A stretch of DNA of 64,000 nt from a virus: the IMG/VR virus record IMGVR_UViG_3300045125_000140, positions 25,214 to 89,213 of that record; one strand, written 5' to 3'. Below the pieces are notes generated by a model, which had not been told where the DNA came from, did no database searches, and saw only the letters and a list, made by a program, of their open reading frames with translations. Both the position numbers and the translations under genes were made by a program. This document shows, piece by piece, positions 13,441-54,979 of this stretch. Position 1 is the stretch's first letter; every line of letters begins with the position of its first letter.

Positions 13441-15546
13441 TTGATGGCTACCGAAGAACCGCGCGGCACGGGAAATACCCAGGTCAACTTACCTCCAGGC
13501 TTTAGTTCAGCGACACAGGCGCCAAGCAGCTCTATTCCTGGGGTGCCGGGCAGCGGCGGCCAAGCCGCTATTAGCACCGACACGTCCCGAAGCGCCACTC
13601 TCCAGGAGATCGACGAAAAAGTTCGTCAAATGATTACGGAGCGTGCGGAGAAGTTAGACGTAGAGCTGCGGCTCAAAGAGTACGATCGGGCACGCCTAAA
13701 TAACGAAAGCAAGTTCTGGGATCTTTTTGTAGCCGAGCCGGTAAATCAGGCGATAGAGGAATTTGCTGACGAGTTCGGAGAAGACGACGAGTCTATAAGC
13801 AACGCCGCCACTAAAACAAAGGCAAAGCTGTCGAGCCTTTTAGATGTGGAATCGACTTGGGAAAACTTCGATACGAAATACGGAAAGCTGAAAAGCTCCG
13901 ACGACTTTACCAACCTCGAGAAGTTATTCAGCAATCCGGAAACAGAGAACTATATAATCGAGCAGTATGTAAGTCCATATGCTCGAAGCGCTCTGGATAA
14001 GGACAAGTGCGAAAATACGGTAGTCGGCGCGTCGATCGGGGTGGTATCTAAAACTTTAGCGGGCGCAGTCCGAAATCAGGTTCGAGGCGTATACGCGCTA
14101 AATGCGTCCTTGGCTCTGCTTATTAACCAGGTGGAGGGTCTGGGGTCGGCGTTCATGCAGATGCCGGTTCAAAACCTTATATCAATTCTGGTGTCTCGGG
14201 ACCTTATAATCGACCGGATAATAAAAGTTTCGGAAGCAATTGCGTCTATTTCCAGAGATATGTCGGACAGGGATTATCCGTTCGACCACCCATACTGGCT
14301 CCGCGAGGAGCAGCGCCGACTTAAAAACGCCGAGGACAAGCTTTCCAGAGTTCAGGCGATTTTGGAGGGCGGCGGTAAGTTTAATACCGGTTTATGGACC
14401 AGCGCCAAGCGGGACATCGATGAAGCGGCCGACGCGCTGTGCGGCACGAATATCGATCAGCTGCTCAGCGGCCTCAGCCTTCGGCCCATCGCGCTAGCCG
14501 GTCTGTCCGCATACCTGCAATCGTTGGTGTCGGTGCTTCAGCGTCAGCAACAGATTCGCAACCTTCTTATAAATTCAATCGTGTCGTTCAACAGCCGGTT
14601 CTTCCAGCTGACGCGATTCGACAATCTCTTCGTTCCGATTGTGCAGGCTATTCGGTGCCGCCTTACGAAGATAAACGATCAGATAGACGTGGCGATTAAA
14701 AAGAACCAGTTCTTCTACTACCTGATAAAGGAGAAGGAGTGGTGCTTATACCTTAAAGCGCTTTCGGCCCTCATGTCCGCGAGCGTCAAGTTTAATCTAC
14801 CCGAAAACGTTAATAAGTTCCTGGGCACGGAGATTCTTCAAAACGCAGCCAACAGCGTCGTAAGCACGTTGAACGAGGCTGCCGTCGAAAGCATCGACGC
14901 CTCTGCCCGAACACTCATCCGCCTGTGCAACGAGTTAATTCTGGTCGCCAAGAAGAAGGCGACGTACAACATCAGCCCGAACTATTTAACCAGCCTCGCC
15001 ACCTCGATTAAGGTGGAGGGTGAGCGGCTGAAGTCAGTAGACGATCCAGTTAGTAAGGTTCTGAATATATTCAGCGGCCTTATTCCAACGCAGGCGTTCG
15101 AGGCGGTTCTTATCGTAAACCAGCTGATGAGCTTTGCGAAGGACCGAAACCTGGATAAGTTCGTTGACGCTATTCAGGCCGGTAATCTCGACGACGCGTT
15201 TGGCGTCAGTGGCCTGATTGCCACTATTGATCAAACAGTTACTTTCGGAATATCAAACTACATAGCCGGAAACATTGCCGGAGGTGGCCTATTCGGTGAG
15301 CCGCTGCGCGAGGCTATTGCCGTTAGAAATTTATCTGTGTCAAGAGCACGGGCACAGGCGGCAAAACAGCGGGTACGCAATTACTCAGATCAGGGAATAA
15401 CCGAGGCATTTGATCAGGTTCAAAAGCTGAAGGACGCCAGACGGTCTATGGGCGTTGTTCTGCAAAACGAGGACGTAAGCACGCCCCCACAAACTATCTC
15501 ACCTAAGCTCATCGACGCTCAAATAATCCCGCATATTGCGGCATAA
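13441..15546 (+). CDS. Large helical hypothetical protein, possibly structural
   Basis: Intact 701-aa ORF. Confidence 0.8.
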   Translation: MMATEEPRGTGNTQVNLPPGFSSATQAPSSSIPGVPGSGGQAAISTDTSRSATLQEIDEKVRQMITERAEKLDVELRLKEYDRARLNNESKFWDLFVAEPVNQAIEEFADEFGEDDESISNAATKTKAKLSSLLDVESTWENFDTKYGKLKSSDDFTNLEKLFSNPETENYIIEQYVSPYARSALDKDKCENTVVGASIGVVSKTLAGAVRNQVRGVYALNASLALLINQVEGLGSAFMQMPVQNLISILVSRDLIIDRIIKVSEAIASISRDMSDRDYPFDHPYWLREEQRRLKNAEDKLSRVQAILEGGGKFNTGLWTSAKRDIDEAADALCGTNIDQLLSGLSLRPIALAGLSAYLQSLVSVLQRQQQIRNLLINSIVSFNSRFFQLTRFDNLFVPIVQAIRCRLTKINDQIDVAIKKNQFFYYLIKEKEWCLYLKALSALMSASVKFNLPENVNKFLGTEILQNAANSVVSTLNEAAVESIDASARTLIRLCNELILVAKKKATYNISPNYLTSLATSIKVEGERLKSVDDPVSKVLNIFSGLIPTQAFEAVLIVNQLMSFAKDRNLDKFVDAIQAGNLDDAFGVSGLIATIDQTVTFGISNYIAGNIAGGGLFGEPLREAIAVRNLSVSRARAQAAKQRVRNYSDQGITEAFDQVQKLKDARRSMGVVLQNEDVSTPPQTISPKLIDAQIIPHIAA

Positions 15547-15555
15547 GAATAATAG
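15540..15555 (+). promoter_or_regulatory. Conserved phage promoter-like motif, copy 1
   Basis: GGCATAAGAATAATAG followed by a GTGGCT...AGCCAC hairpin. Confidence 0.7.
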
Positions 15556-15641
15556 TGGCTGCTTTTGGCGTCAGAGCCACTCTGTCCGGGCAGACTCCCG
15601 GTGAAGTCTTTCTGGCCTAGCTAGCCAGAAGGGAGGCTGCG

Positions 15642-16259
15642 ATGGGATTCCGCATCGTAGTCAGTGTTGTGGAGGAGGGCCTCGTGCACGAGGGTCGAGT
15701 GATCGACCCCGCCACGGGGCCGGTGGTGTTAGACCCGAAGCGCGGTGTTCGGGTCTTGGTCGCAGCGCGCCCAGGTAACAAGCCGGGGCAGACGCTGCTT
15801 CAACTCCTTGTTCGCGTGGGCGCGGACAAGGAGTACGTCGTTCCAGCCCACATTCCGGGAGAGTACGCGCTGCTTCCGGAATTCGGTCACAGGGTAAAAC
15901 ATGCGACCGAGGTTAAGGATCCGTTGGAGCGGGTCCTCCGCGAGGAGGGGATTCCCCTTGCGGCCGCGTCCTTCTACCACGACCCCACGGTTGCGGTAGA
16001 AGTCGAGATCGCCACGGAGACGTCCGCGGCGGTTAAGCCCTGGAATTTCACCAAGGCGCAGACGGCTGTCCTGAATAAGGGCGGCCGTGTGTCTTTCGGG
16101 CCGTGGACCGAGCTCGGGCCCGGGCTCGGTCGGGCCCGGAAGGCAACATTCACCCCCTCCTCCAAGGGGGTGGTGATCATCCTCAGCGACGTTCGGGTGG
16201 GCCGCCACCCCGGCGTCGCCGAGCGCAGGATCGAAAGATCCTTATCGGCAGGGGCGTGA
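15642..16259 (+). CDS. Hypothetical protein
   Basis: 205 aa with a GGGAGG RBS; followed by a coupled 33-aa ORF (16256..16357, MTPAELKAALAAAK...). Confidence 0.7.
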   Translation: MGFRIVVSVVEEGLVHEGRVIDPATGPVVLDPKRGVRVLVAARPGNKPGQTLLQLLVRVGADKEYVVPAHIPGEYALLPEFGHRVKHATEVKDPLERVLREEGIPLAAASFYHDPTVAVEVEIATETSAAVKPWNFTKAQTAVLNKGGRVSFGPWTELGPGLGRARKATFTPSSKGVVIILSDVRVGRHPGVAERRIERSLSAGA

Positions 16260-16357
16260 CGCCTGCCGAACTCAAGGCCGCGCTCGCGGCCGCGAAGCAG
16301 GAGCGCCTGGACGTGATCCAGGCTTCTTCTGTGTCCGCGGCTGCGGCACAGGCCTGA

Positions 16358-16413
16358 AAAAGGGTGGGGTACAGGGGGCAGTGCGGCCCCTGTACCCAAC
16401 CCACCCTATTTTT
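16358..16413 (+). terminator. Long hairpin terminator
   Basis: AAAAGGGTGGGG TACAGGGG...CCCCTGTA CCCAACCCACCCTATTTTT. Confidence 0.65.
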
Positions 16414-16585
16414 AACCCAATTACACCCAATTAGGCCAAAAATAGCCATTTTTGTCATATTTTGGCTATATAGGCGGTTTTTAGGCCAAAATAGGCTATT
16501 TTAGCCCAAAATAGCCCAAAATGCCCTATTTTGGCCTAAAATGGCCTATTTAGCCCCTATAGGGCCAAAAACAGGGGTATTTTAT
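16410..16585. repeat. AT-rich degenerate ~10-bp periodic repeat tract
   Basis: Repeated GGCCAAAA/GCCCAAAA/GGCCTAAAA units and their complements, with quasi-palindromes such as AAAATAGGCTATTTT. Confidence 0.7.
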
Positions 16586-16601
16586 GGCACAAGAATAATA
16601 G
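16586..16601 (+). promoter_or_regulatory. Promoter-like motif, copy 2
   Basis: GGCACAAGAATAATAG. Confidence 0.7.
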
Positions 16602-16980
16602 AGGACATATTAGGTTGCAAACTAATGTGTTCTCAAACCCCGGGCATCGGACTAACTCACCGATGCTCTCAAGGGGTGCCCCCAAGGGCTGGCTCGACGA
16701 AGGAGCAGCCGCCGTATTAGGAACCGGCGAGGGGCAAGGTTGACACCAGACCTGATAAGGTGTCCCTCTACAACCAAAATGGTGAATCTGCGAATCGAGT
16801 CGGCAGATTCTTAATTGTAGAGGCGGTAAGTCGCGGGAAGGTCCCGCCCATGGTATGGCTATACCCGCTCACCCTAGCGAAAAGGGGGGATGTGGCAAGT
16901 CCCTTAAACTTGTGCTCCGCATTCTACGGGCAGATTCATTGTGGGTCTGCCCGTGGAGTTCGGTTCAAACAACATGTGAG
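16601..16980 (+). ncRNA. Candidate structured ncRNA or long structured leader (~380 nt)
   Basis: No convincing ORF. Consecutive stems at 16601-16634, 16642-16668, 16765-16823 (nested 16784-16810) and 16924-16956. Confidence 0.5.
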
Positions 16981-16995
16981 CTGAAAGGAGTTTAG

Positions 16996-17151
16996 ATGAG
17001 GTTTGATTTTGAAAAAGAGTTAGTGTTCGACAAGACCGGCAAAGAGATAGGTTATTTGGAACCCACGTACAACGCCATGAACTGGCGTGTACTTTTATAC
17101 GCGGAAAGCGGGCCTCCCATTCACTGGGGAGTAGCCTTTCCGACACCATGA
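16996..17151 (+). CDS. Small hypothetical protein, probably extended to about 17250 by an indel
   Basis: AAAGGAG RBS then MRFDFEKELVFDKTGKEIGYLEPTYNAMNW...; terminator AAAGCGGGGG/CCCCCGCTTT at about 17231-17260. Confidence 0.55.
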   Translation: MRFDFEKELVFDKTGKEIGYLEPTYNAMNWRVLLYAESGPPIHWGVAFPTP

Positions 17152-17284
17152 CCTCCGACACCTTGGATACGACGTCTCGTACGTTGTATTCGAGGTGTCG
17201 AGAGACCAGGCGAAAGCTTGGAACATCGTCAAAGCGGGGGTTAGACCCCCGCTTTCTTTTACTCCAAATAATATTGAAAACTGC

Positions 17285-17300
17285 GTCATAAGAATAATAG
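17285..17300 (+). promoter_or_regulatory. Promoter-like motif, copy 3
   Basis: GTCATAAGAATAATAG followed by a GAGAGAGT...ACTCTCTC hairpin. Confidence 0.7.
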
Positions 17301-17426
17301 AGAGAGTATTACCGGAGGTAGGGAAACTCTCTCCTAAACCTAGAGATCAGGAGGGTTCCTGATCCGTGGTTTAGTTCCTGTTCGACGATGAATGAAAGAG
17401 GAAAACTTTCTTCGTTCGCTCAAAAA

Positions 17427-17816
17427 ATGAGCGAACTCCTCGAGCTGCCGCACAGGCAGCTCGAGGATCTCCGAGAGGCTTCAAAGAAGTTTGAAGCCGT
17501 TCTCCTTTGGGAGGACGACGCGGACGACGAATGGGCGGACTTTGTGTCCGTCAGAGGTTGGATCGAGGTGGCGTATTTACGCCTGCTCGAGAGCAACCGA
17601 GTCCGCCCTGACTGGGATTCGGCGCTCGACGCACTCAAGTGCGTCGATGACGCGCTGGGGACCTTCACCTCGAGGGTGAAGGACCCCAAAGGCCGCAAGG
17701 AGGTCAATGACCTCCTCGAGGCCACCTGGGAGGTCCAGGCCGGCCTCAAGCCGGCTATCGATCGGCTCAGGCTCCGCCAACGGGTGGAGACTGAAGCACC
17801 CACCCTCAACGACTGA
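17427..17816 (+). CDS. Helical hypothetical protein
   Basis: ORF 17388..17816 with likely start at 17427; terminator GAAGGCGGGG/CCCCGCCTTC plus T-run at 17823-17863. Confidence 0.7.
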   Translation: MSELLELPHRQLEDLREASKKFEAVLLWEDDADDEWADFVSVRGWIEVAYLRLLESNRVRPDWDSALDALKCVDDALGTFTSRVKDPKGRKEVNDLLEATWEVQAGLKPAIDRLRLRQRVETEAPTLND

Positions 17817-17887
17817 GGGTGGGAAGGCGGGGTTGGTCATGTGCCGGCCCCGCCTTCTTTTTTACCTCAAATACTTCCACATATTGC

Positions 17888-17903
17888 GGCATAAGAATAA
17901 TAG
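17888..17903 (+). promoter_or_regulatory. Promoter-like motif, copy 4
   Basis: GGCATAAGAATAATAG followed by a GAGAGGAC...GTCCTCTC hairpin. Confidence 0.7.
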
Positions 17904-17968
17904 AGAGGACATTACTTGGAAAGGTAAGAAGTCCTCTCCCCGACCAGGCGTCAGGAGGGTTCCTGAAT

Positions 17969-18250
17969 ATGGTTGGGTTCTGGCAGGTTATGACGAACAG
18001 CAACAACAACTTGCCGCCGGCTCAACCGGCGGCTGCGGCGAAAGCTGCCGCCACGCCCAAGTGGGCGGTGGCGGCGGTGCTCGCCGCCATCACCCTCTCG
18101 GTGGTGGCGGCGGTGGTGGCCGCCTCGGCGAAGGCCGAGGCGCAGGCCAAGACGATCGTGTCCATCAAGGACACATCGTCTTGGTACCAATCGTCGGTGT
18201 GGGTTGCGACCCACGCCGACGGCTCAACGTCCACCCTCACGACTAAGTGA
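17969..18250 (+). CDS. Small membrane-anchored protein
   Basis: Hydrophobic WAVAAVLAAITLSVVAAVVAA segment; start at 17969 or 17990; terminator hairpins at 18257-18358. Confidence 0.6.
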   Translation: MVGFWQVMTNSNNNLPPAQPAAAAKAAATPKWAVAAVLAAITLSVVAAVVAASAKAEAQAKTIVSIKDTSSWYQSSVWVATHADGSTSTLTTK

Positions 18251-18393
18251 GGGTCGCGCCCCTCTCAGCTCGGAGCTGGGAGGGGCAAAACGCGGAGATG
18301 GATTGTCCCGCGTTTCTTTTACTCCGGATAGCCGCTTGGGTTAAGGCGGCTTTTTTTCACTATCATCATTGCTCAAATTTTATAGCAAATGAT

Positions 18394-18409
18394 GGCATAA
18401 GAACTATGT
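18394..18409 (+). promoter_or_regulatory. Promoter-like motif, copy 5 (variant)
   Basis: GGCATAAGAACTATGT upstream of the GGAGG RBS of the AAA gene. Confidence 0.6.
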
Positions 18410-18431
18410 GCGCTTTTTAATTGGAGGTAGC

Positions 18432-19538
18432 ATGACGTTTCTCAATAAAGTTACGAATTCGTTGTCCGGCTTCTATCAGCCGGAGAAGTTCGCGAAGGTG
18501 CTGTCCCTCGCTCTCGCGAGCGGGCGGCATCTGGTCGTCTACGGACCTGCCGGTCACGGCAAGTCCGAGATGACACAAACAGCCCTCAAGGGGCTGGACC
18601 CCTTCGTGCTCTCGTTCGGCGAGGGCATGACCGAGGACAAAATCTACGGCGGCATAGACTTTGCCGCCATGAACCGCGCGGACTCGCCGGTTCTTCAGTT
18701 CAACGCGCAACACTCCTTCCTCGCGCACAGCATCGCTGTGTTCGAGGAGTTGTTCGACGCGCCGTCGAACGTCCTCCTGTCGCTGAAGGACACCCTCGCG
18801 GCGAAGGCTCTGCGCGCCGGCCACCAGCAGGTGGCGTCGAAGGTGAAGACCATCGTGGCTCTCACCAACAAGAGCCCGAGCGAGATGTCGGAGCTCGGTC
18901 CGTCGGTGCAGGCGCTGACCGAGCGCTTCCCGCTGCAGTACGAGATGCGGTGGGCAAATTACGACTCCAACGCGTACCGGCAAATGCTGGCCGCGGAAAA
19001 GTCGTGGGCAGAGGCGGGCATCGTCGAGTCCGACCTCGACGAGGTGCGGGAAAATTGCGGCCGCGTCGAAATCGGTGAGGACATGATGGACGCGTACGCC
19101 ACCGTGCTCGGCACCGCGGCCGACTCGGGTCGCCTGGTGTCGCCGCGCATCGCGCGGGCTGGCCTTGACGTGATCAAGGCATCGGCGGCGATTAACGCCC
19201 GCAGCTACGTTGAGGTGGAGGACCTCGCCGAGGTCACCTATCTCGGGATCGATGTCGGCGATTACGTCGACACGATCGAGCGGCGGAAGAGGACTCGGGA
19301 GGCCAGAGAGTCCCTCTCGGCTCTCGAGGAGCAGCTGACCGCGCTCAAGGGAGCGCTGGCGAGCGCATCCACGCCGATCCCGGCTCTTCAGGTCGGGAAG
19401 GCGGCAAAGGAGATCGCGAACCGCGCCAAGGCACTCGCGGTCACCGACGATCTCGTCAGGGCGCGAGAGAACATCGAGGCTGGGGCGAACGTCGTCGCAA
19501 AGGCCGCCGTCGAGCTGGCCACGAGCCTCACTCGATGA
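18432..19538 (+). CDS. MoxR/RavA-like AAA+ ATPase
   Basis: Walker A GPAGHGKS, Walker B-like AVFEELFD, sensor TN, ALTERF and sensor-2 VSPR. Confidence 0.85.
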   Translation: MTFLNKVTNSLSGFYQPEKFAKVLSLALASGRHLVVYGPAGHGKSEMTQTALKGLDPFVLSFGEGMTEDKIYGGIDFAAMNRADSPVLQFNAQHSFLAHSIAVFEELFDAPSNVLLSLKDTLAAKALRAGHQQVASKVKTIVALTNKSPSEMSELGPSVQALTERFPLQYEMRWANYDSNAYRQMLAAEKSWAEAGIVESDLDEVRENCGRVEIGEDMMDAYATVLGTAADSGRLVSPRIARAGLDVIKASAAINARSYVEVEDLAEVTYLGIDVGDYVDTIERRKRTREARESLSALEEQLTALKGALASASTPIPALQVGKAAKEIANRAKALAVTDDLVRARENIEAGANVVAKAAVELATSLTR

Positions 19539-20739
19539 GGTTTTTCAGGAGTCCGGCGAACTATATCATGCCGTCGGACTACGAGCTCTCTGAGGGGCTC
19601 AAAAGAATCGGCTGACCGCAGAGCGTGATTTCTTTCACGACCTGATCGCGCGGTCAGCCGGAGGCGAGGTGGACACGAGCGTCGAGGCGGAGAACTACTC
19701 CGCGCGAGACTTCGTGAACTCCTTCGACCTGGAATCCGTTCCAGGCGATACGCCTATGAGGCGAGCTCTCTCGCTAATGAAGGCGTTGGAGCTGGTGGCC
19801 AAAGAGGCGCCGCCGGAGGTGGGCTCCAAGACCGCCCGCAAGGGATTTGCCCGCGCACTAAGCAGTGACGCGGTCACAAATGAGGGAGGCAAATTCACTT
19901 TCGCCTCCCCTGAAAAAACCGCGAGGCTGCTCAAAAAGCGGTTCGAGGCGGTAAAAGAGATGTCCGACGAGGAGCAGACAATTCTCGGCACCGACCCTGT
20001 CTCGATTATCAAGACGGGGTTGAAGGCCGGGGACTTCCTGAGGATCTCCAGGAAGCTCAAGCGATACGACAATTTCGCTCTCCGTCCCACTAACAAGGTG
20101 AAGGCCGACGTTAACGGGACGGACACGCGGATGCGTCCTATCAAGGACTTCTCGGAGATCGGCCGCGCGACGTCTGACTTCTGGGGCCTACCCAAGAGGC
20201 TCCAAAACTTCCGCATGGTGACCAACCAGGTCATGGTGCGGGAGAAGGTCAAGAAGGAGGATAAGAAGCAGCTGCTTTATATCCTCGTTGACGTCTCGGG
20301 GTCGATGAAGGACGGCGACCGCCGGGCAAAGGCGGTCGCGGTCGTTCTAAACCGACTCACGTCGGTTGTCCGGGGCGAAGCCGTCCTCATCGTGAGGACG
20401 TTCTCAAACCGCCTTCTCGATAGGTGGGAGGTTGAGGATGCGACCGACGCGAAGACCGTCATGAGTCGGATCGTAAATCACCCCTTCTCGGAGGGGTCGA
20501 CCGCGATCGGAAATTGCACCGCCAGTGCGGTGCATGAGATCGAGCAAATGTCCGAAAGCGGGAGGTTTGAAGGAACCAAGCCCGACCTGGCCGTCGTTAC
20601 TGATGGTCAGGATACGGTGGACATGCAGCTAGAGGAGCTCCACGGGATCAAGTTGCACGCATTCGTGTGCGACGGTGTGAACGAGGGGCTTACTCAGCTG
20701 GCGGTCAAGTCCGGCGGTTGCGGAGTCGGCAGCTTCTAG
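19535..20739 (+). CDS. VWA-domain (ViaA-like) protein; 5' frameshift
   Basis: MIDAS motif DVSGSM, GST and VVTDG; ATG at 19535 overlaps the AAA stop. Confidence 0.85.
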
Positions 20740-20772
20740 GAAGAGGGGGCGCTTCATGCGCCCCTTCTTTTT
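20740..20772. terminator. Terminator between convergent genes
   Basis: GGGGGCGC TTCAT GCGCCCCC followed by TTCTTTTT. Confidence 0.65.
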
Positions 20773-20962
20773 ACTGCTCGTTATTTTTCGCTATAACGGC
20801 AGCTGTCGCGTCTTCCCACGACCAACCATCATTTGCCGCCTTGAGTCGCTTTATTTCCGCGATCTCTTCGGTGGTCAAAAACTTAGGAATAGGAACGTGA
20901 TCGGGAATCCCTGACCGCAGAGATTCCCGTCTTCCTATCTGTCGTGCTCGTTCTTCGTTCAT
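20771..20962 (-). CDS. Hypothetical protein
   Basis: 63-aa ORF coupled to the upstream gene. Confidence 0.55.
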   Translation of the reverse strand: MNEERARQIGRRESLRSGIPDHVPIPKFLTTEEIAEIKRLKAANDGWSWEDATAAVIAKNNEQ

Positions 20963-21195: not shown

Positions 21196-21205
21196 AGGAC
21201 CTCTA

Positions 21206-21409: not shown

Positions 21410-21457
21410 GGTGGTCCTCCTTGCAGGACATCTTCAGTATAATCGGTTGGGAGGGAT

Positions 21458-22958: not shown

Positions 22959-22969
22959 AGTTGTGTCCC

Positions 22970-35527: not shown

Positions 35528-35998
35528 CTACCGAGAGGCCGCGCGACTCGCGCCGATCTTCTCTATCCGAGCCATACGATCTTTGGCGAGACCCGCCGCG
35601 TCCTGATCGGCCCCCAAAGTCACGGTCGGGCCCGGCATTTGATCGGCCGCCCGATCTTCTGCCGGAGTTCCCCCGGATTGGTTACCTGTACGGTAGGCCG
35701 GGCTAGAGATCGGAGGCAGCGGCATGGCCAGTTTGGAAAGAAGGGCGCCCATAAACGCCGCTTCGGCTTCCTTATGGTGCTCTTTTTCAAGACCTAGGTC
35801 CTCTGCTGCATCCTCGGGCACAGGCTTTTCGGATTCATACTCACGACGCTCCTTCTTAAGCCCATACTTTCGTTTAGCTTCGGGCGGAATCGGCTTAGAC
35901 GCATGATATTCATGCGACGCCAATTTGTTCATGAAGGAGTTCGTAACAATATCTAGCATGTGCAGGGGGTCCCTAGGAATAGGATAGGCTGGGGGCAT
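35528..35998 (-). CDS. Protein with two degenerate tags
   Basis: NSFMNKLAS and AFMGALLSKLAM. Confidence 0.65.
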   Translation of the reverse strand: MPPAYPIPRDPLHMLDIVTNSFMNKLASHEYHASKPIPPEAKRKYGLKKERREYESEKPVPEDAAEDLGLEKEHHKEAEAAFMGALLSKLAMPLPPISSPAYRTGNQSGGTPAEDRAADQMPGPTVTLGADQDAAGLAKDRMARIEKIGASRAASR

Positions 35999-36025
35999 AG
36001 ATATTCAAAAATATGCCGAATATGC

Positions 36026-36041
36026 GGCATAAGAAGATTAG
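36026..36041 (+). promoter_or_regulatory. Promoter-like motif, copy 6
   Basis: GGCATAAGAAGATTAG followed by a GCAGTAA/TTACTGC hairpin; lies at a strand switch. Confidence 0.7.
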
Positions 36042-36070
36042 AGCAGTAATTTACTGCTGAAAGGGGAGGT

Positions 36071-36382
36071 ATGAAGATCCTACTCGTTTACCAAGACGGG
36101 ATCGAGAAGGTTAACTCGGCCCGCGTCTTTTTTATGGAGCCTTTTGGCCGCGAGGTCGAGGCTCCTAAAAAACGAGAGATGCGGGAGTACTCGGAAATGC
36201 TGCCGGACATCAAGTCGGCGGCGATGATCCAGTACGGCCGCGACCTTAAAACCAGCAAGGTGTGCTGGTCTCGCAAATTCAAGTGCTTGCTCTTGAAGGA
36301 GCACCGTGGATTTGATATCTTCATCGAGTTGCCCGGTTTCCGGGCGTGGCACGATCGGTGCCTCGATTCGATGGACACCTGA
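36071..36382 (+). CDS. Hypothetical protein
   Basis: 103 aa with a GGGGAGG RBS. Confidence 0.7.
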   Translation: MKILLVYQDGIEKVNSARVFFMEPFGREVEAPKKREMREYSEMLPDIKSAAMIQYGRDLKTSKVCWSRKFKCLLLKEHRGFDIFIELPGFRAWHDRCLDSMDT

Positions 36383-36388
36383 AAAAGG

Positions 36389-36461
36389 AACTCCGTAGCT
36401 CAGTTGGTAGAGCAGCAGACTTTTAATCTGTTGGTCCTGGGTTCAACTCCCAGCGGAGTCA
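36389..36461 (+). tRNA. tRNA-Lys(UUU)
   Basis: TAGCTCAGTTGGTAGAGC D-arm, GCAGA-CTTTTAA-TCTGT anticodon arm, CTGGG-TTCAACT-CCCAG T-arm; position 1:72 mismatched as sequenced. Confidence 0.9.
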
Positions 36462-36788: not shown

Positions 36789-36988
36789 TATTCCGTACTA
36801 TGGGTTATTTCACTCAAGCTGTGTCGAGGGGAAGGACACAGAGTGGGAAAGAGCATTATCTAAGATGCTCCTAGATCAGGACGTCCAGATCGAGATAAAT
36901 CCTGATCTACCGCTCGAGCCGGCGTTACTGGCTCTTTTCATCCCCGTCCGTGTGGCATGGGCTACCCACAAAAAACTGTGGATCCTGT

Positions 36989-37004
36989 GTCATAAGAAGA
37001 ATAG
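36989..37004 (+). promoter_or_regulatory. Promoter-like motif, copy 7, upstream of the ECF sigma gene
   Basis: GTCATAAGAAGAATAG followed by a GTGGG...CCCAC hairpin; lies inside ORF 36739..37065. Confidence 0.6.
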
Positions 37005-37072
37005 TGGGAGAATTATTACCTTCGCTACGAAGGCTATAAGCGTCCCCACCATGTATCAGGTATAGGAGGTAT

Positions 37073-37660
37073 ATGCCTGAATTGTTTAGTAAGAGGAGAG
37101 CGGAGCTGCAAAAAGAGCTCATGCTCAAAGTAAAGAATTCTGCGCCGGATGCGCAGGAAGCCGCGGCGCAGCTCTACATGGAGCTGAAGCGAGCGGTGGC
37201 CGGAAAAGCACTGTCCGTCAGTCGAAGGCTGACGCCGGTGCTGGACGACCTCATCCAAGAGGTATTTCTGCGGATGTTGGACCGCAGCAAGTTGTACGAC
37301 CCTAAGTACAACGTGAACTCTTGGGTGATGAGAATCACCCGGAACATCTGCATCGATAAGATGCGGTATGAAAAGGTCCGGGAGACCGAGGTGCTCCAGG
37401 ACAAACCGTCCGCAATCGTCGAGGCCTCGAATCAAATCGAAGCCGACGAACAACGAGCTCTAATCGAACTCGGACTGAAAAAGCTTCCGGAGACCCAGCA
37501 GCTGGTTCTTCGGAAGTATTACTTGGAAGGGGATAATCTTGAGGAGATTATCTCGAGCACCAAATTCAAGAAGGGGACCATAACCTGCGCCATGTCGCGC
37601 GGGATTAAGGCTCTCCGAGAGAACCCGAATATCGGGAAGCTAGCGCCAGAGGTTGACTAG
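37073..37660 (+). CDS. ECF-type sigma-70 factor
   Basis: DDLIQEVFLR and SWVMRITRNICIDKMR (region 2); LKKLPETQQLV...LEEI...GTI..MSRG (region 4). Confidence 0.88.
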   Translation: MPELFSKRRAELQKELMLKVKNSAPDAQEAAAQLYMELKRAVAGKALSVSRRLTPVLDDLIQEVFLRMLDRSKLYDPKYNVNSWVMRITRNICIDKMRYEKVRETEVLQDKPSAIVEASNQIEADEQRALIELGLKKLPETQQLVLRKYYLEGDNLEEIISSTKFKKGTITCAMSRGIKALRENPNIGKLAPEVD

Positions 37661-44699: not shown

Positions 44700-44741
44700 G
44701 GGTACCTCAGATATATTATACCCGGCTGGTCTTCTTTTTAC

Positions 44742-44996
44742 CTAAATTACCGTCAGCTTGTCGTCAGCAAGGGAAACAAATAGCTGAGTTCCCGGCCACT
44801 GAAATGGGGAGACTCCGTAGGTCTCGCTCTGATTCAGGGTAACAAACATGTTGCGGCTTAATTTAAGCAGCCCGCCCGTCTGACCCCACGGACCGAATAA
44901 AAATAGAGTCCCTGGAGGGTTATCTGGGGAGAATGGGCCGCCGGCCCAGGTATCCGGCTCGAGCCGGAGAACTTCCTTAAATTCGAACTTAGTCAT
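44742..44996 (-). CDS. Hypothetical protein
   Basis: 84 aa coupled to the sigma gene. Confidence 0.6.
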   Translation of the reverse strand: MTKFEFKEVLRLEPDTWAGGPFSPDNPPGTLFLFGPWGQTGGLLKLSRNMFVTLNQSETYGVSPFQWPGTQLFVSLADDKLTVI

Positions 44997-45715
44997 CTGG
45001 CTTGCTGTAGTTTCTTGGCGAGGTCTCGTTTAATTGAATAAACCTTGTCCTGCGTCAGACCGGTCTTATGGCATATATCGCTAACGCTGTCAAGTCTGGG
45101 TTTGCCGTGAGCTCCGAGAGAATAGTCAAATACCAGCTGCTCTTGGGGAGTCAGGACAAAATAGATGAATTCGAGGCTATCTTTAAATCGATCATTTACG
45201 GCGCCGACCTGATCGAAGGTCATACCGGAGGAGGAGAGCTCCTTGCGGCTGATGGCTTTCTCCAGCTCCGTAGCGTCGGAAACTGATATGTGGAGCGCCT
45301 CAGCCATCTCGGTGGGAGTAGGCTCCCGGTCTTTCTCGGTCTTAAGGATTTCTTTAGTTGCTACGTATCGGCTCAACATAAGGAATCTATGTTCTGGAAT
45401 TCTAGCTACGTTCTTAGTCTGATTTACGAATCTCGATAAACGTAAATTAGACTCTAGGAACGTTCTAAAGTTAGCGTCACTTGAAGGGTCATATCTATCG
45501 ATAACGCCTTTAAAGATCTTGATGGCCTGAGCCTTTATAACAGACTGAGGTACGGGAGCGGAAGAGTAGGCTTGAGATTTTTTCGTAATGAGGTCGTGGT
45601 GGCGCTCGAGCAGCTGATTAAATGCGTGATCGTCGCCCCGCTTTGCTTTGGTCACCAAGTCCTTATCCGGAGATAGGCCCATGGCCTTCATTAGGTTTGG
45701 TTGGTCAGGAATCAT
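44993..45715 (-). CDS. Sigma-70 family factor (group-3-like), probably the late sigma
   Basis: AKRGDDHAFNQLL, IDRYDPS..NFRTF, ARIPE, REPTPTEMAEAL and region-4 LTPQEQLV. Confidence 0.85.
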   Translation of the reverse strand: MIPDQPNLMKAMGLSPDKDLVTKAKRGDDHAFNQLLERHHDLITKKSQAYSSAPVPQSVIKAQAIKIFKGVIDRYDPSSDANFRTFLESNLRLSRFVNQTKNVARIPEHRFLMLSRYVATKEILKTEKDREPTPTEMAEALHISVSDATELEKAISRKELSSSGMTFDQVGAVNDRFKDSLEFIYFVLTPQEQLVFDYSLGAHGKPRLDSVSDICHKTGLTQDKVYSIKRDLAKKLQQAR

Positions 45716-49591: not shown

Positions 49592-50162
49592 CTGTTACAA
49601 ATATCCCAAATGAGATAGACAAGACGCCCGGAAGTTGGGCGTCCGCGCCTATCTGGCACGTGGTTACGTGACCTTTAACCGTTTTCTTTAGATACGATAA
49701 TCTGGTTTCGTAACGAGTGATCTGTGTTTGGTCTGATGCGGTGGCGTCGGAGCTGAAGTACGTCTTCCACGCGTCGACCCAACGACTGAATGTTTTATTG
49801 AGGGAGTCTTGGGCGAGAAGATACCCGGTGTAGGAGTAGTTTCTAAACAGACGCCCGCTACCTCCAACGGACTCTCCGCCGCCACCCGACGTGGTCACGA
49901 TCGTAGGTCCTAGCGTGTAAACTGGGTTGTTTCTCTCTTCGTCCGCTTCTCGTATGGAGACGATAATAAAATCGTCGAGAGCAAATAATAAAGTTTGATT
50001 GGTGCCTTCTTTAATTTCCCACACGGACAACGCCGCATGAGCCTCGTCAGGTATCTGCGTTCGTGAAAAGAGCTGCGCCTTAGCATCGGACAGTGCGGTA
50101 TTTTTATAATCCGAAACTATCGTCTTGGCGGATGCTTTGTTTATTATGTCCTCTGCGGCCAT
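49581..50162 (-). CDS. Putative tail-tube-initiator-like protein
   Basis: 193 aa with DFIIVSIREADEER and YSYTGYLL; position after the tape-measure-like gene. Confidence 0.5.
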   Translation of the reverse strand: MAAEDIINKASAKTIVSDYKNTALSDAKAQLFSRTQIPDEAHAALSVWEIKEGTNQTLLFALDDFIIVSIREADEERNNPVYTLGPTIVTTSGGGGESVGGSGRLFRNYSYTGYLLAQDSLNKTFSRWVDAWKTYFSSDATASDQTQITRYETRLSYLKKTVKGHVTTCQIGADAQLPGVLSISFGIFVTDVT

Positions 50163-50164
50163 GG

Positions 50165-52497
50165 CTATGCAAATTTACGGTAATCAATTCACTGCGGTTT
50201 ACTAGGCGCGTGCGCTAACAATGTTTACGTCGACACGTTCCTATAACTCTTGCTTCTGAAGGTCCTGTTCCTTTATTGATAGATCCGTCTACTCGTTGAG
50301 CAGAAATCGGGTCCCTAAACAAGGAGCGTATGTACTCTTTGGTTCCAATGGCTTTATCCTTGAGCAACTTAAGTCCCTTGTCGCTTAATTCGTCAGTTTA
50401 GCGATATCGTACTTAGCAATAGAGCCCATTATATTGCCGCCGGATGCCTGTTTAACTGCACTAGCCATTGCGGCATCGCTGAACAGTCCTGGCTCATCGA
50501 CTTTGTTTTTTAGGAACAACCCTCTGTTTGTTCGGGCTTCTGCAGATTATTCTTCGATATAAATTTCGAAGTCTCTCGTTAGGTGCGCTTTAGCGTCTAT
50601 GCTCGTCTCCTTTGGACGGATCTCTTAGAAATATGCAAAATTACAAGTTTATCGACTTGATCTACGCCGTGTCTAGGAGCTACTCGCTCTTATCGCATCC
50701 GTTACTAGTTTTTGGCGATCGCGGCGAGTATCATCGAGGAAAGGCCGGATATAAAATCCCCTACACGATTTTTTCCGGACTTGTCATACTGCGGAGCCAG
50801 AGAGACCTTCCTGTATCATGCCAATTTCAGAGGTGGCGAAGATTTAATGCGGCTCAGCTGTGCGCGCGTCTAATCGCTTTACCGCTAATAGCAGACTCTG
50901 AAACCTCCGGGTGTTTTAGCTTAGGTATTGAGCGAACAGTTGCCATACCCTTGAGGATCCGTTATACCGTACGCATTGGCGACAATTTTAGACTGCCGCT
51001 AAGTCTCTGCTACCGGATCCATGCTACGAAACGTCTGTGGGAAGCTGTTCTGCGGCTAGCGCGCTCGAAAGATTTCTCAAAAGTCTATTTCGTTGGAACG
51101 CCGGCGATTTATTTAAGGCGGCAGAAAGGACACCTGCTTGCCCCAACTTTAGACAGCAACATTGGAGGCCATCACATCTGGAAAAAGTTTATAGCGCAGA
51201 GCTAGTAACGGATTTGACAACGTTGCGCCGAATGTTCCGGCGCGCCCTCGCAGCATTCCGGCTACGCCGGAGAATGCCGCCGGATTGAAGGCCTAAAGCT
51301 GCTTGCTGATTTACCACGGCAAATAATCCGCCGGCACTCATGCTCTCGGATAAAAGCTGCTCTCTAGTGGCCTGTAGGCTTTGAAGTCCCGCTATTCCGG
51401 TACCAAATACACCGGATTGATTAGCGCCTATAACCTCAAACTCACGCGTTGCCTGAGCTACGGAGGCAAACCTCGCGTTGCGCATCATATCCGCCTGCGC
51501 TCCTCTTAATCCTCTCGAGCTCGCTGAAATGGCCGTTTGAGATGCGAGCTGCGTTATAAACTCGTCGGTTCCAAAAGAACCAAACAGATTTTGAGATCTT
51601 GCGGTTTGTACCGAGCTCAGAAATAACTTGGAGGCGTCGAGATTGGTAGCGCCTGCTTTAGCAAGTTCTTGATATCCGGACATGAGCTTGTCGGCGCTTA
51701 TGCCGAGTTTTCCAACAGACTTTGCTAAAATCTTCTAAAAATTTAGAGGACTTATCTCCCAACATCCTTGGTAGTAGATCCGACGGGTCCTCCAAACGCT
51801 AAAGCGAGCTTAGCGAGCTCTTCTTGCTGAGAAGCTCCTAGACCCATACCCCATCTTTTCAGCGTTAAGCTTACCTATTCTGAGAGACGACCCTATTTAC
51901 GACGTTGCCCGCTAGCGCCGGTTCTTCCGATGAGGGCCGCCCATCTGCTCGGCTAGTTGTCTAGTGAGTCCTGATCTTATTCTCTCGTCGTAACCGCCGG
52001 TAGCTCTATACGCTATGCTGTCGTCGAGCAGGCCGCCGAAGGTGAAGTGCGCCGTATTTAACGTTGGATATGAACTCCTGACCTCTGAGTCTTAATTCTG
52101 ACTGTGCGTTATCTCGCATCTGCTCAGCAGTTTGCGAAATACTTCTATTAACATCCTGGAATAGGTATCCTCCCGAAGCTCTATTAAGAAGGCTGCCTAG
52201 TCCTGACTCGTAAAGAAGGCCACCAGGGCCGCCCACACGAGGCCCAAACGCAGAGGCCGACGCATACATGCCTCGGCCCATAGCCTGATTAAGGAATCCC
52301 GAGCTAGCGCCTAGGAACGGGGATATCATGCCCATCCCCGCATACGCGCCAGCGGCGCCGTGCGCTAATCCACCGGCTACGATCCCGCCTGCCCCCATCA
52401 GCGAGTTCTTGACCATCTGCAGCTGCTGCATGGTCTCTGCCCGGAGCTGAGCTTGCTGAAGGCTATCGGTAAGTTGTGCGGACAGATTATCAGGCAT
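50165..52497 (-). CDS. Tape-measure-like protein, heavily frameshifted
   Basis: Fragments 52006..52497 and 51189..51683 are Ala/Gly/Gln-rich and helical; located between chaperones and hub genes. Confidence 0.45.
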
Positions 52498-52556
52498 ACG
52501 TATACAGTTTAAATAAAAGAAGCCCCGGCAACGAGCCGGGGCCGGCTGTTAAGCCA

Positions 52557-52958
52557 TCACTTTTCGCCAGCTTGTCTTCTGGCGTTAAGTAATAAATTAT
52601 CCAGCTCTGCTCGAATCATGGTGTCGATGGAGCTATCGGACCGATGATTCTCGAGGAAGCGGATGATGGTTGTTTCGTAGTCCGTGAGCTCTAGATACCG
52701 GTCAGGCATTACGACGAACATGCCGTTTAATCGGCGCTTCGACGTAAAGGGTTTGCCCTCCCCGGTAAATACGGCTACTTCGATGTCCTCGTCGGACATG
52801 ATTTTAAGCCCGTTATTAACCGATAATCCGGAGTCGATTAAATGGACCGTATGGGTCTCGGTCGTCTTTTCAACGACCGAGCACGCCGTTACGCCCAATA
52901 CGATCATACAGCCGGCCAACGCTGCTAGAAGGGGCCGACGGGCGATCTTGGTTAACAT
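52557..52958 (-). CDS. Lipoprotein, o-spanin candidate
   Basis: Signal peptide with lipobox GVTA-C; start overlaps 52870..53061 in another frame. Confidence 0.6.
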   Translation of the reverse strand: MLTKIARRPLLAALAGCMIVLGVTACSVVEKTTETHTVHLIDSGLSVNNGLKIMSDEDIEVAVFTGEGKPFTSKRRLNGMFVVMPDRYLELTDYETTIIRFLENHRSDSSIDTMIRAELDNLLLNARRQAGEK

Positions 52959-53061
52959 ACTCAATCTTCTCCGTGATGGTCGTCTTGGGAACAAATACAG
53001 CCAATAACTGCTGTATCAGGGCCTCAAACACAGGCTTTAAAAGCGTGAGCAAAATGCTCAT
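52870..53061 (-). CDS. Small membrane protein, i-spanin-like candidate
   Basis: N-terminal hydrophobic helix; lies between the holin-like and lipoprotein genes. Confidence 0.45.
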   Translation of the reverse strand: MSILLTLLKPVFEALIQQLLAVFVPKTTITEKIEYVNQDRPSAPSSSVGRLYDRIGRNGVLGR

Positions 53062-53426
53062 GCCGTCGCCTTAATTCCCATCTTATCGAGAATGAGGCCG
53101 ATCATGCCCTTAACACGGTTCTCGCCCCAGGTCTTGATAAAGACACCGACCGGGCCCTTGGCCTCTTCAAGGACGAGCTCCCAAGCCTTTTGGCGGATAG
53201 CCGAAAGCTCGGCCGCGGTCACCTTGGCGCCACCGTCGGAGTCGGGCGCCATGGCGATCTTGAGCCACTCCTGCGCCTTATCGGTTACGCGCTTGGTGCA
53301 GGCGAGGATGAGTTCCTCGGCATCCTTAGCGAGGTTAGCCTTCTTAACGCCCCAGGCGACGAGCGCCACAACCAGAGCAGCCAGAAGAGAAGGAAGATGG
53401 TCAAGTAGGATAGGTAGGATTTCCAT
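53058..53426 (-). CDS. Holin-like single-TM protein
   Basis: N-terminal TM LPSLLAALVVALVAWGV followed by a soluble helical domain. Confidence 0.55.
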   Translation of the reverse strand: MEILPILLDHLPSLLAALVVALVAWGVKKANLAKDAEELILACTKRVTDKAQEWLKIAMAPDSDGGAKVTAAELSAIRQKAWELVLEEAKGPVGVFIKTWGENRVKGMIGLILDKMGIKATA

Positions 53427-53433
53427 GGGTATC

Positions 53434-53958
53434 TCACGTGAACAGGTAAGCACCTAAATAACCATGGATGTTTCGCACTCTTTCCCGCACAATCGAGTCA
53501 GAGTCCGCAACTTCCAGGTCAGCAGCATCATTGATGTGCTGCACGAATATAGCAGGTCCTACACGGGATGCAATAGTGGACGACGACAGATTTATCTTAT
53601 CCCGGTACTTGGCGGCAAATGTAGCGTTTACTCCGGGCACGCTCAAAAGGGGGTTTTGAGTATCCTGGGTGAGGTCATCAGTAATGGAGGTCTCAAGACC
53701 GGCGGCCGCCAGGAAGTCGGTAAAGAACCGGGACGACTCTATCACCTGAGAGGCGAACTGCTGGGTGGTAAGCTCGGACAGCCCGGCCGAGGTTCTAGAC
53801 GCGTTGGCCGCGGCCAGGGCGTCGTCGAACTCGTTAGGTGGGATAGCTCGGGCCTCGTAAAAGGGCGAGAGTCTCGGATTCTGTAAATCCCGAAGATCTT
53901 CTTTGGCGAGCTCGATGAGGGAGATCGCCAGATCTTGGGCAAGGTAGGTGTCAGCCAT
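53434..53958 (-). CDS. Hypothetical tail-region protein
   Basis: 174-aa ORF. Confidence 0.6.
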   Translation of the reverse strand: MADTYLAQDLAISLIELAKEDLRDLQNPRLSPFYEARAIPPNEFDDALAAANASRTSAGLSELTTQQFASQVIESSRFFTDFLAAAGLETSITDDLTQDTQNPLLSVPGVNATFAAKYRDKINLSSSTIASRVGPAIFVQHINDAADLEVADSDSIVRERVRNIHGYLGAYLFT

Positions 53959-54247
53959 TCGGTTTCTTCCTTACCTCTAGAATACTGCCGCGCGGCGACG
54001 GCACCGCCACGAATGCGTATTTTTGAATTTCGGCAAGCTCGGCTGCGGCAACCGTGGCCTTCTTCTTCTCGTTATCCTTGATCCCGATAAAGTACTCGTT
54101 CTTAAGGATCTCCAGGAGCTGCTCGGCCATCTCCTTGGACTTGGCGTTGGATACGACCATGGCGCACTGGTCCATATATCGGAGGGTGGTTTCCTTACGT
54201 TCGTATTCAATAATATCCACTTGCTCAAGCGGAGACAGCTCTCGCAT
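53951..54247 (-). CDS. Putative tail assembly chaperone, second (GT-like) part
   Basis: 98 aa directly downstream of the chaperone-like gene. Confidence 0.5.
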   Translation of the reverse strand: MRELSPLEQVDIIEYERKETTLRYMDQCAMVVSNAKSKEMAEQLLEILKNEYFIGIKDNEKKKATVAAAELAEIQKYAFVAVPSPRGSILEVRKKPNG

Positions 54248-54302
54248 GTCTACACCCCCGTACGCAGAAGAGCTTTTAATCGGTAAAACGCGAACGGGGT
54301 GC

Positions 54303-54917
54303 TTAAGGGTTTTTAAGATTTTCCAGGAGGGCCAATTGCTTAGCCTGATCCAGGTCGTTCAGAACACTCAGGATATAGTTGAAGAAGATGGGGTCCATAT
54401 CCAGGATGTAGTCGTACTGCTGCTTTACCAGAGGGTCAGCCGCCCACGTTGTCCTATTATCGGACGTGAGGGGGACCTTTTGGAATATAGTGTCGCCGAG
54501 GCGGACGATCTGAATAACGACCCGGTAAGCGCCCAAGTCGCGCTTGACTTCGTTAGACTGAGTCGAGCTTATACCAAACAGCGGGTCGAAGAGGGCGATG
54601 GCGGTCTGCTCTCTCCGGCTCATGCTTTGAACAACCAGCTCGGTTTTAAGGATCTTGGTCGTATATTGAATCCTACCAGTGATCAGGTGGTCCTTATCGA
54701 TCACCTGGTCCCAGATGGACTTATATTGGGCCTTGAACTCGTTGTACGAGAGCTTTCCGAATATATCCGAGGTGACGTCCTCGGGGAGCTTGACTAGGTC
54801 CTCACGGGACGCCTTATCGCTCTCCTCTTTACGGACCTTATCTACTGCCTCTACGGCCTGGGAGTCCCGATACTTCTGTTCGAGCATTTCCCGGCTAGGA
54901 CCGAATGAACTCTGCAT
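54303..54917 (-). CDS. Putative tail assembly chaperone
   Basis: AAGGAG RBS before the ATG at 54917; ends LENLKNP on an A-run. Confidence 0.55.
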   Translation of the reverse strand: MQSSFGPSREMLEQKYRDSQAVEAVDKVRKEESDKASREDLVKLPEDVTSDIFGKLSYNEFKAQYKSIWDQVIDKDHLITGRIQYTTKILKTELVVQSMSRREQTAIALFDPLFGISSTQSNEVKRDLGAYRVVIQIVRLGDTIFQKVPLTSDNRTTWAADPLVKQQYDYILDMDPIFFNYILSVLNDLDQAKQLALLENLKNP

Positions 54918-54963
54918 GCACGTCTCCTTGGGTATAGGATAACCAAAAATACGCACATATTGT

Positions 54964-54979
54964 GGCATAAGAAGAATAG
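54964..54979 (+). promoter_or_regulatory. Promoter-like motif, copy 8
   Basis: GGCATAAGAAGAATAG followed by a GTCGGC...GCCGAT hairpin; lies at a strand switch. Confidence 0.7.

Follow-up and report, generated by a model that had tools for sequence, protein, structure and literature searches.

A family of repeated elements, each lying upstream of a gene on the same strand, was identified in the genome of a large, uncultured phage that has been found in lake and freshwater metagenomes of several studies. The window analysed is a stretch of 64,000 nucleotides (nt), bases 25214-89213 of the 155,302-bp IMG/VR virus record IMGVR_UViG_3300045125_000140, and the record is estimated to be 81% complete. 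The sequence GKCAYAAGAAKAWTAG is found exactly seven times in the window, at 15540, 16586, 17285, 17888, 36026, 36989 and 54964, always on the plus strand, whereas 100 shuffles gave an expected count of 0.00. An eighth copy at 18394, with the core GGCATAAGAACTATGT, is a genuine but weaker member (35 bits, and 14.6 in leave-one-out scoring). The seven copies and the variant had been described in an earlier note made from the letters alone, and the count holds. Two further copies were found beyond the window, at the window-equivalent positions 72960 and 129555, so that the whole 155-kb contig contains ten members. All ten are on the plus strand genome-wide, an orientation that is not random. A weight matrix built from the ten gave the members 35-55 bits (15-50 bits in leave-one-out scoring) and the best non-member on either strand 7 bits; the family is therefore closed and strand-pure, and contig scans revealed no weaker copies of the motif. 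Each copy is located 16-160 nt 5' of a plus-strand start codon. The features of the locus are listed in Table 1.

Table 1. Promoter copies, 5' stem-loops, terminator-like hairpins and genes of the locus (positions in the window unless marked as genome positions; 5' stem-loops are numbered after the promoter copies)
Feature	Position	Strand	Details
Promoter copy 1	15520-15555	+	CAAATA box 15520-15525; core 15540-15555; predicted +1 15554; 55.0 bits
Promoter copy 2	16566-16601	+	CAAAAA box 16566-16571; core 16586-16601 (CACAAG variant); predicted +1 16600; 43.4 bits
Promoter copy 3	17265-17300	+	predicted +1 17299; after terminator 17231-17255; 46.8 bits
Promoter copy 4	17868-17903	+	predicted +1 17902; after terminator 17821-17859; 54.6 bits
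Promoter copy 5	18374-18409	+	variant core; predicted +1 18408; after terminator 18330-18351; 35.0 bits
Promoter copy 6	36006-36041	+	predicted +1 36040; 47.4 bits
Promoter copy 7	36969-37004	+	predicted +1 37003; directly 5' of ECF-type sigma gene; 45.0 bits
Promoter copy 8	54944-54979	+	predicted +1 54978; heads long plus-strand block; 50.9 bits
5' stem-loop, transcript 1	15554-15581	+	AGTGGCT ... AGCCACT; pairing 0.99
5' stem-loop, transcript 2	16601-16634	+	13-bp stem
5' stem-loop and second hairpin, transcript 3	17300-17333; 17334-17374	+	apical TCAGGAGGGTTCCTGA; z -2.84
5' stem-loop and second hairpin, transcript 4	17903-17938; 17939-17977	+	apical TCAGGAGGGTTCCTGA; z -4.10
5' stem-loop, transcript 6	36042-36058	+	7-bp stem, 3-nt loop; z -3.28
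5' stem-loop and second hairpin, transcript 7	37004-37049; 37056-37080	+	z -3.39
5' stem-loop, transcript 8	54979-55000	+	6-bp stem; z -1.29, weak alone
Intrinsic-terminator-like hairpin with T run	17231-17255	+	closes cassette before copy 3
Similar terminator-like hairpins	17821-17859; 18330-18351		before copies 4 and 5
Cassette gene 1	15642-16259	+	205 aa, no family match
Cassette gene 3	17388-17816	+	142 aa, no family match; cassette missing in related strain
Cassette gene 4	17969-18250	+	93 aa, no family match; swapped in related strain
MoxR-like AAA+ ATPase; VWA-domain protein	18432-19538; 19669-20739	+	served by copy 5
103-aa ORF and tRNA-Lys	36071-36461	+	served by copy 6
ECF-type sigma	37073-37660	+	195 aa; served by copy 7
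20-codon upstream ORF (55012-55074) and 192-aa ORF (from GTG 55071)	55012-55649	+	first genes past copy 8
Sigma-like protein	44993-45715	-	240 aa; reciprocal best match of Arash Gp10; candidate promoter reader
Portal-like protein	genome 150807-152714 (= L033:10808-12715)	-	635 aa; beside RNA polymerase gene

The element is longer than first seen. Gapless alignment on the CAYAAG core gave the hexamer CAAA(T/A)(A/T), 14 variable bases and the block G(G/T)-CAYAAG-AAKAWT-AG, that is, CAAAWA followed after exactly 14 nt by G(G/T)CAYAAGAAKAWTAG. The A-tract that the earlier note had seen upstream of most copies is this conserved hexamer, which stands at a fixed 14 nt before GG/GT in 10/10 copies, and the CATATTG(C/T) reported directly before three copies belongs to those at 15540, 17888 and 54964. 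With the C of CAYAAG taken as index 0, the upstream box lies at -22 to -17. The spacer from CAAAWA to YATAAG is exactly 16 bp in 10/10 copies, within the 16-18 bp of fixed-spacer sigma-70-family promoters. The layout consists of a -35-like box, this spacer, a G at the extended -10 position (-14), a hexamer at -10 that has A(-11) in 10/10 copies and a six-base discriminator, and it is closed by a pyrimidine/purine step at -1/+1, with T at index 11 and a purine at index 12 in every copy. Extended -10 sigma-70 promoters have the same boxes 16 bp apart, G(-14), A(-11), A/T-rich discriminator and pyrimidine/purine step (PMC7598289 for the -10 rules), but the element differs from them in an invariant G at -7, in CAAAWA instead of TTGACA and in about 20 more conserved bases. 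The earlier claim of no match to sigma-70 is thus correct for the words and not for the geometry, which is of the sigma-70 family; even YATAAG agrees with TATAAT at 4-5 of 6 positions.

An unusual extended -10 host promoter, read by the primary sigma holoenzyme of the host, is highly improbable as an explanation of these elements. The agreement of the hexamer with TATAAT includes A(-11), the G(-14) and the 16-bp spacer are canonical, and the consensus of the host may differ from the sigma-70 one that was compared. The sixth hexamer position is G rather than T in 10/10 copies here and in all strand-biased copies of the two cultured relatives described below, whereas sigma-70 needs T(-7), which the primary sigma binds flipped into a pocket (review PMC7598289). 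The -35 box is unlike TTGACA, a simple sigma-70 consensus scan called 0 of these sites, and a run of about 20 contiguous conserved bases is far tighter than is found among host promoters.

The probable transcription start is index 12, the A in the motif's closing TAG. Three indirect cues point to it: the T/purine step at index 11/12, the lack of a Shine-Dalgarno (SD) word before index 12 and stems that open at index 13-14. The T/purine step was found in 10/10 copies here and at 26-30 of 30 and 13-14 of 14 sites in the relatives, Salmonella phage Arash and Vibrio phage D69. In these two phages, the earliest SD word past the hexamer starts at index 12 and never earlier, so the RNA should start at or before index 12. 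A start inside TAAG is less likely, since neither the T/purine step, conserved as it is, nor the boundary of the stems would then be explained. The likeness of this TAAG to the baculovirus late TAAG motif is, we take it, a coincidence of letters.

The earlier report that stem-loops begin near the final G was borne out by a pairing test in which 50-nt folds from index 12 were compared with random 50-mers of the genome. The mean pairing probability of nucleotides +2 to +6 was 0.85 versus 0.45 in the random 50-mers (p = 3e-5), and it exceeded 0.8 in 7/10 copies versus 10% of the random 50-mers. The stem opens 1-2 nt after the predicted +1 in seven of the ten copies, and the leader folds begin their first stem at the final G of the motif. 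The pairing signal is maximal when the 5' end is set at index 12-15 and is lost a few bases to either side. Five of the seven folded leaders gave z values of -2.8 to -5.8, and the remaining two gave -1.3 and -0.2. The stems are unrelated in sequence between copies, so the conserved feature is their structure. A conserved (a)TT(a) was also observed at index 22-25, about 11-13 nt past the predicted start, in 8/10 copies (e.g., 15564-15567, 16610-16613 and 17309-17312). Its placement is independent of the position of stem and loop, and it may be a pause or a downstream contact.

Several leaders contain additional structure. The second hairpin of leader 4 encloses an SD sequence and the ATG at 17969, and that of leader 7 encloses the SD sequence and start codon of the ECF sigma gene. 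Leaders 3 and 4 have the identical apex TCAGGAGGGTTCCTGA (17345-17365 and 17950-17965) on lower stems that differ by compensatory changes, and the proteins encoded downstream of the two are unrelated. The first 100 nt or so of transcript 2 are highly structured, opening with three strong hairpins (z -5.76), and no convincing open reading frame (ORF) occurs for about 160 nt, before 16760; the region 16599-16909 (plus strand) possibly encodes a non-coding RNA. Rfam and tRNA scans of 15000-19000 found nothing above noise.

Stem-loops of the ompA type at the 5' terminus stabilise bacterial mRNAs. The stems described here resemble them in lying within 1-2 nt of the predicted 5' end and in having unrelated sequences, and by this analogy the 5' stem would most likely shield the RNA 5' end from end-dependent RNases. 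They differ from the ompA type in that three leaders, whose ribosome-binding site is hidden by a second hairpin, suggest translational control as well, and in that the 5' ends are predicted ones. The hairpin virion-RNA-polymerase promoter of N4, a 5-7 bp stem with a 3-nt loop located 5' of +1 and read by a giant single-subunit virion polymerase, was also compared. Copy 1 alone has such a hairpin (CCGCA-TAT-TGCGG), and the conserved stems lie downstream of +1 and vary in size.

The core word of the element is common to a branch of cultured phages. Matches of the phage RNA polymerase (RNAP) among cultured phages were found in the Vibrio phages D69, D148 and D181 (29% identity, 93% coverage) and in Salmonella phage Arash (32%), and the genomes of Arash and D69 were scanned in full. 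Arash contains 33 copies of G(G/T)TATAAG (GGTATAAG/GTTATAAG), 31 of them on the minus strand, which is the non-structural strand. The Arash consensus GGTATAAGtaaaGTGTAa lies just 5' of SD sequences, and its -35 region is weakly A-rich; with the N5-T-R extension, 27 copies are in reverse and 1 in forward orientation, and the controls gave 0 and 2. In D69, TTATAAG occurs 25 times on the minus strand versus 5 times on the plus strand, whereas TTATAAT occurs 8 times on each. The D69 consensus is (t)GTTATAAGtaatAT(a/g)(g/t)A and often comes straight after a terminator.

The core G(G/T)YATAAG-N5-T-purine is therefore enriched on one strand in all three phages (10/10 here, 31/33 in Arash and 25/30 in D69), and it stands on the non-structural strand, 15-60 nt before start codons. 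The motif of this phage is the local spelling of a probable promoter word common to the Arash/D69 branch. Salmonella and Vibrio use TATAAT with T(-7), so a class with G(-7) at 25-31 sites is very unlikely to be that of the host. There are also differences: position -12 is spelled C here, the strong CAAAWA box is replaced by a merely A/T-rich region in the relatives, the RNAP is one chain here and split by inserted genes in the relatives, the ten copies here contrast with about 30 in each relative, and the added 5' stem-loop is a feature that the relatives lack. The Arash leaders are less structured than random, and the D69 leaders have no significant 5' pairing. Because these leaders lack the 5' stem, the hairpin does not belong to the promoter class, and the polymerase does not require it. 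The promoter word is not enriched in Carin-5, GN1, RHph_Y65 and IME392, four more distant RNAP phages with split beta/beta', and the class is therefore confined to the branch of Arash, D69 and this phage.

Other promoter-like words were seen in the relatives. On the plus strand of D69, a second word, TAAAATAT(A)nnTA, precedes genes, for example upstream of 41231, 47959, 137858, 140625, 159455 and 185661; the non-structural genes are on the other strand, and this one, which holds the minority of genes, presumably encodes the structural proteins. In Arash, words like TAAAAT(A/C)C stand in front of some plus-strand genes, among them the portal gene. No counterpart was found in this phage.

The machinery that might read the promoter is encoded in the same genome. 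A genome search for RNAP subunits, as proposed in the earlier note, found a single-chain beta-beta' RNAP of 2011 amino acids (aa), in which domain scans identified Rpb2 domains 3 and 6 followed by Rpb1 domains 1, 2, 3 and 5. The beta' clamp-helix, which is the docking site of sigma region 2 on bacterial enzymes, is represented by a segment that aligns gaplessly to solved beta' chains. The 635-aa protein encoded beside the RNAP gene matches the annotated Arash portal gp204 (tblastn 1.5e-64) and gave no match in PHROGs. A search for a T7-like polymerase (PF00940) gave no genome match, a weak negative since the control search was blank, and ten window ORFs of 356-813 aa were unmatched. No clear capsid-address tag was found on the RNAP N-terminus or on the sigmas. 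At the RNAP N-terminus (L033:10352-10420, minus strand), F9, E11 and L12 align with the capsid-address leader MNxFExGFFDELxKIA, and K-K-A is at 21-23; this likeness is weak and failed a pattern search.

The contig contains three sigma-like genes. Sigma-domain searches of the genome identified the 195-aa ECF type and an RpoD/RpoS-like protein of 282 aa that spans regions 2 to 4. The third, of 240 aa, was spotted through the comparison with phage Arash; it matches Sigma70_r3 (1e-5) and phrog_351 (7e-13) and was missed by the genome searches with Sigma70_r2 and r4. The 282-aa sigma retains both canonical tryptophans of region 2.3, a feature that suits a -10 of the TATAA kind, and its region 2.4 differs at the residues that read -12 in E. 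coli sigma-70. It has 14 relatives of 44-95% identity on contigs of up to 193 kb. Three short contigs in IMG/VR and JGI metagenomes cover its neighbourhood, where this phage also has no motif copy, and the matches of about 30% in the same collections are mostly high-GC cellular sigmas.

Reciprocal tblastn showed that this phage, Arash and D69 have in common a portal gene beside the RNAP gene and both a Gp10-type sigma (the 240-aa protein here) and a gp196-type sigma (the 282-aa protein). In Arash, the Gp10-type gene is on the strand annotated as structural; in D69 and in this phage it is on the opposite strand, which carries the minority of genes. In D69 a YATAAG promoter precedes the gp196-type gene, and here the gene is part of a motif-headed block. 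RNAP beta was the protein detected most by mass spectrometry of Arash virions, with beta' and sigma Gp10 found as well; gp196 is absent from the virion-table rows covered, and the authors raise early transcription as a possible role (PMC10585845).

A target of the phage ECF sigma, autoregulated from copy 7 and controlling a ten-member regulon, is a quite improbable reading of the motif. ECF sigma genes typically have a promoter of their own in front of them, and copy 7 lies 69 nt 5' of this one; two strongly conserved boxes with rigid spacing are found in ECF promoters as well, and the strong CAAAWA box is particular to this phage. The core on the -10 side, however, is common to Arash and D69, neither of which encodes a relative of this sigma. 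No homologue of the ECF sigma was found among 5.8 billion proteins, and its best family models are Bacteroidota-type (GFO_1088/PG0214). The G(-14) suggests a contact with region 3, which ECF sigmas lack, and known ECF -10 elements are CGT-type rather than TATAA-type. The ECF sigma is the least likely reader of the three because the core word, unlike this sigma, is not restricted to one phage.

Redirection of the host RNAP core to the promoter by a phage sigma, as in SPO1 or T4 late transcription, with the phage RNAP serving other genes, is unlikely but carries real weight. Phage sigmas classically act with the host core, and three sigma-like genes are present here. The terminators upstream of the promoters are of the ordinary intrinsic type that host polymerase obeys, and recognisable sigma homologues are typical of large phages without a polymerase of their own (review PMC7598289). 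The distribution of the word points the other way, as it occurs together with the RNAP in three distant phages and is absent from the four more distant RNAP-encoding phages. The phage RNAP retains the sigma-docking coiled coil, and the RNAP and one sigma are both found in the Arash virion preparations (PMC10585845).

The reading that we favour, with moderate confidence, is that the element forms a bipartite promoter for transcription machinery encoded by the phage itself; a phage sigma-70-family protein with the single-chain beta-beta' RNAP would most likely recognise it. The earlier note had proposed an early promoter for a phage RNAP or sigma; the promoter and its link to the phage machinery are backed by the RNAP gene, the sigma-like genes and the core word in Arash and D69. 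The timing is probably early. The RNAP and the Gp10-type sigma, encoded on the late strand, would be made late and carried in the virion, and the conserved position of the Gp10-type gene on the late strand in all three phages fits such a packaged-RNAP cycle. After injection, the two proteins would fire the ten promoters. The products would include the accessory cassettes, tRNAs, the MoxR/VWA pair, the ECF sigma, a helix-turn-helix regulator and a block of reverse transcriptase and ubiquitin-like genes and, by read-through, replication genes and the second conserved sigma. The newly made sigmas would then turn on the late genes. Each cassette would be insulated by its upstream intrinsic terminator, and most transcripts would begin with a 5' stem 1-2 nt from the RNA end, a feature of this phage only. 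A more specific form of this cycle is tentative and rather doubtful. It would be a closed, sigma-dependent cycle in which the virion-borne, degenerate Gp10-type sigma reads G(-7) in place of an otherwise universal T, the early RNAs supply the late sigma and the promoters double as crossover points for cassettes.

Several observations weigh against the favoured reading. The relatives are distant, with RNAPs only 29-32% identical. The 240-aa sigma has no WW dyad in region 2.3 and a divergent C-terminal helix-turn-helix, and the region 4.2 helix of the 282-aa sigma is of the primary type (RERIRQ), which predicts TTGACA rather than CAAAWA; for these reasons neither sigma fits cleanly. The lack of a clear capsid-address tag counts in the same direction. 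Hairpin energies of the group are just modestly below random (p = 0.04-0.07), the signal being positional. Ten copies here compared with about 30 per relative mean that other promoters must serve many non-structural genes, and k-mer and two-block searches for a second (late) promoter class in this phage gave nothing above shuffles. RNA contigs were available from one metatranscriptome run (X9; depth 2-5, DNA carry-over possible) and cover 15444-15663, 16573-16909 (the longest), 17814-17982 and 18002-18211. Since their 5' ends lie 13-96 nt before three of the motif copies, they neither support nor place the start.

The promoters between 15.5 and 18.4 kb are arranged in a row of self-contained units, as indicated by the order of terminator, promoter, leader and small ORF. 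The terminators before copies 3, 4 and 5 are G+C-rich hairpins with T runs, and the terminator-promoter units span 17231-17300, 17821-17903 and 18330-18409. Copy 1 overlaps the stop codon of the 701-aa ORF 13441-15546, and copy 6 lies within a 72-bp divergent gap after the minus-strand gene 35528-35998. The genes for a tRNA-Leu, a helix-turn-helix protein and a tRNA-Arg follow 3' of the ECF sigma gene. The block headed by copy 8 contains the reverse transcriptase and ubiquitin-like genes, then the helicase, primase and 282-aa sigma genes. The upstream ORF (MTFVNDIL...) that opens this block ends in a TGA overlapping the GTG start of the 192-aa ORF, and its N-terminus resembles that of the MoxR-like protein (MTFLNKV...) after promoter 5. 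The genes served by the promoters include five small proteins without a family match and two small membrane-like proteins. Queries of IMG/VR with the ECF sigma, MoxR and reverse transcriptase found no close relatives, and blastn of 13000-20000 against phage records gave no match. The exact 16-mer has 32 single matches in IMG/VR, 0 of which have a CAAAWA box, and these are chance occurrences.

Related strains, compared as assembled metagenome contigs, gain and lose cassettes at these promoters. One strain lacks 17261-17887, comprising promoter 3, the 142-aa gene and its terminator, and at the joint of 17260 to 17888 a 25-nt bridge remakes CAAAAA-N14-GGCATAAG. In one contig, the sequence that follows promoter 1 is attached to the end of promoter 4 (17903 back to 15563), and in other strains the genes after promoters 2 and 4 are replaced. 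The cassette breakpoints lie at or beside promoter copies (17260-17888, 16867-17236 and 17940-18306). Such joints would be expected if the repeat were mainly a recombination or mobility signal bounding the cassettes, or an RNA-processing site, but this is the least probable of the explanations considered. The position, orientation, distance to start codons, terminator-then-motif order, sigma-type geometry and T/purine step all fit a promoter. The two roles are also compatible, since promoter cassettes of T4-type phages act as recombination linkers by being repeated promoters (PMC2839356).

The T4-type units, known as PeSL (promoter-early stem-loop), are repeated promoter and stem-loop units that flank small genes without known function within a variable region and provide transcriptional insulation and crossover points for gene gain and loss (PMC2839356), as the cassettes do here. 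PeSL promoters are of the host sigma-70 type with a terminator stem-loop, whereas the promoter of this phage is phage-specific and has two stems, a terminator before it and a second at the RNA 5' end. A phage-specific, A/T-rich and highly conserved block near -10 is likewise known from the early promoters of phiKZ- and AR9-like phages, which head early operons and are transcribed by a multisubunit polymerase that enters with the virion (PMC7598289). The phiKZ and AR9 enzymes consist of split beta/beta' fragments and have no known sigma homologue; the enzyme type here differs in being one bacterial-like chain with conserved sigma partners, and the promoter has a second box at -35.

No publication on these promoters was found. 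The paper on the bacterial-type beta-beta' lineage (PMC7481178) uses neither "promoter" nor "sigma", and the Arash paper (PMC10585845) makes no mention of a promoter. The phage multisubunit RNAPs studied so far (phiKZ and AR9) act without sigma homologues, and no promoter, sigma partner or transcription programme has been published for the present lineage. A promoter common to two cultivable phages makes the machine testable, with a template, a predicted start base and three candidate sigmas, and how G at -7 is tolerated by a sigma can be studied in a natural case. The cassettes bounded by these promoters illustrate how phages of this kind trade accessory genes, which here comprise among others a reverse transcriptase, ubiquitin-like genes, tRNAs and an ECF sigma, and the compact promoter with its 5' stem may serve as an orthogonal expression part.

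Two other likenesses of the motif were tried and set aside. The Bacteroidota -7 box (TAnnTTTG), read on the reverse strand, fits just 2 copies. A FliA-type arrangement (TAAA-N15-GCCGATAA) has equal spacing, but ATAA alone matches, and the likeness is an analogy only.

A dense array of repeats of the type GGCCAAAATAGGC, with a period of about 10 nt and in both orientations, abuts promoter copy 2 at 16429-16575. It comprises direct families of four and three copies and 11 inverted pairs, and its last repeat provides the CAAAAA box of the promoter. The repeats could bind a regulator or form an iteron field like that of an origin.

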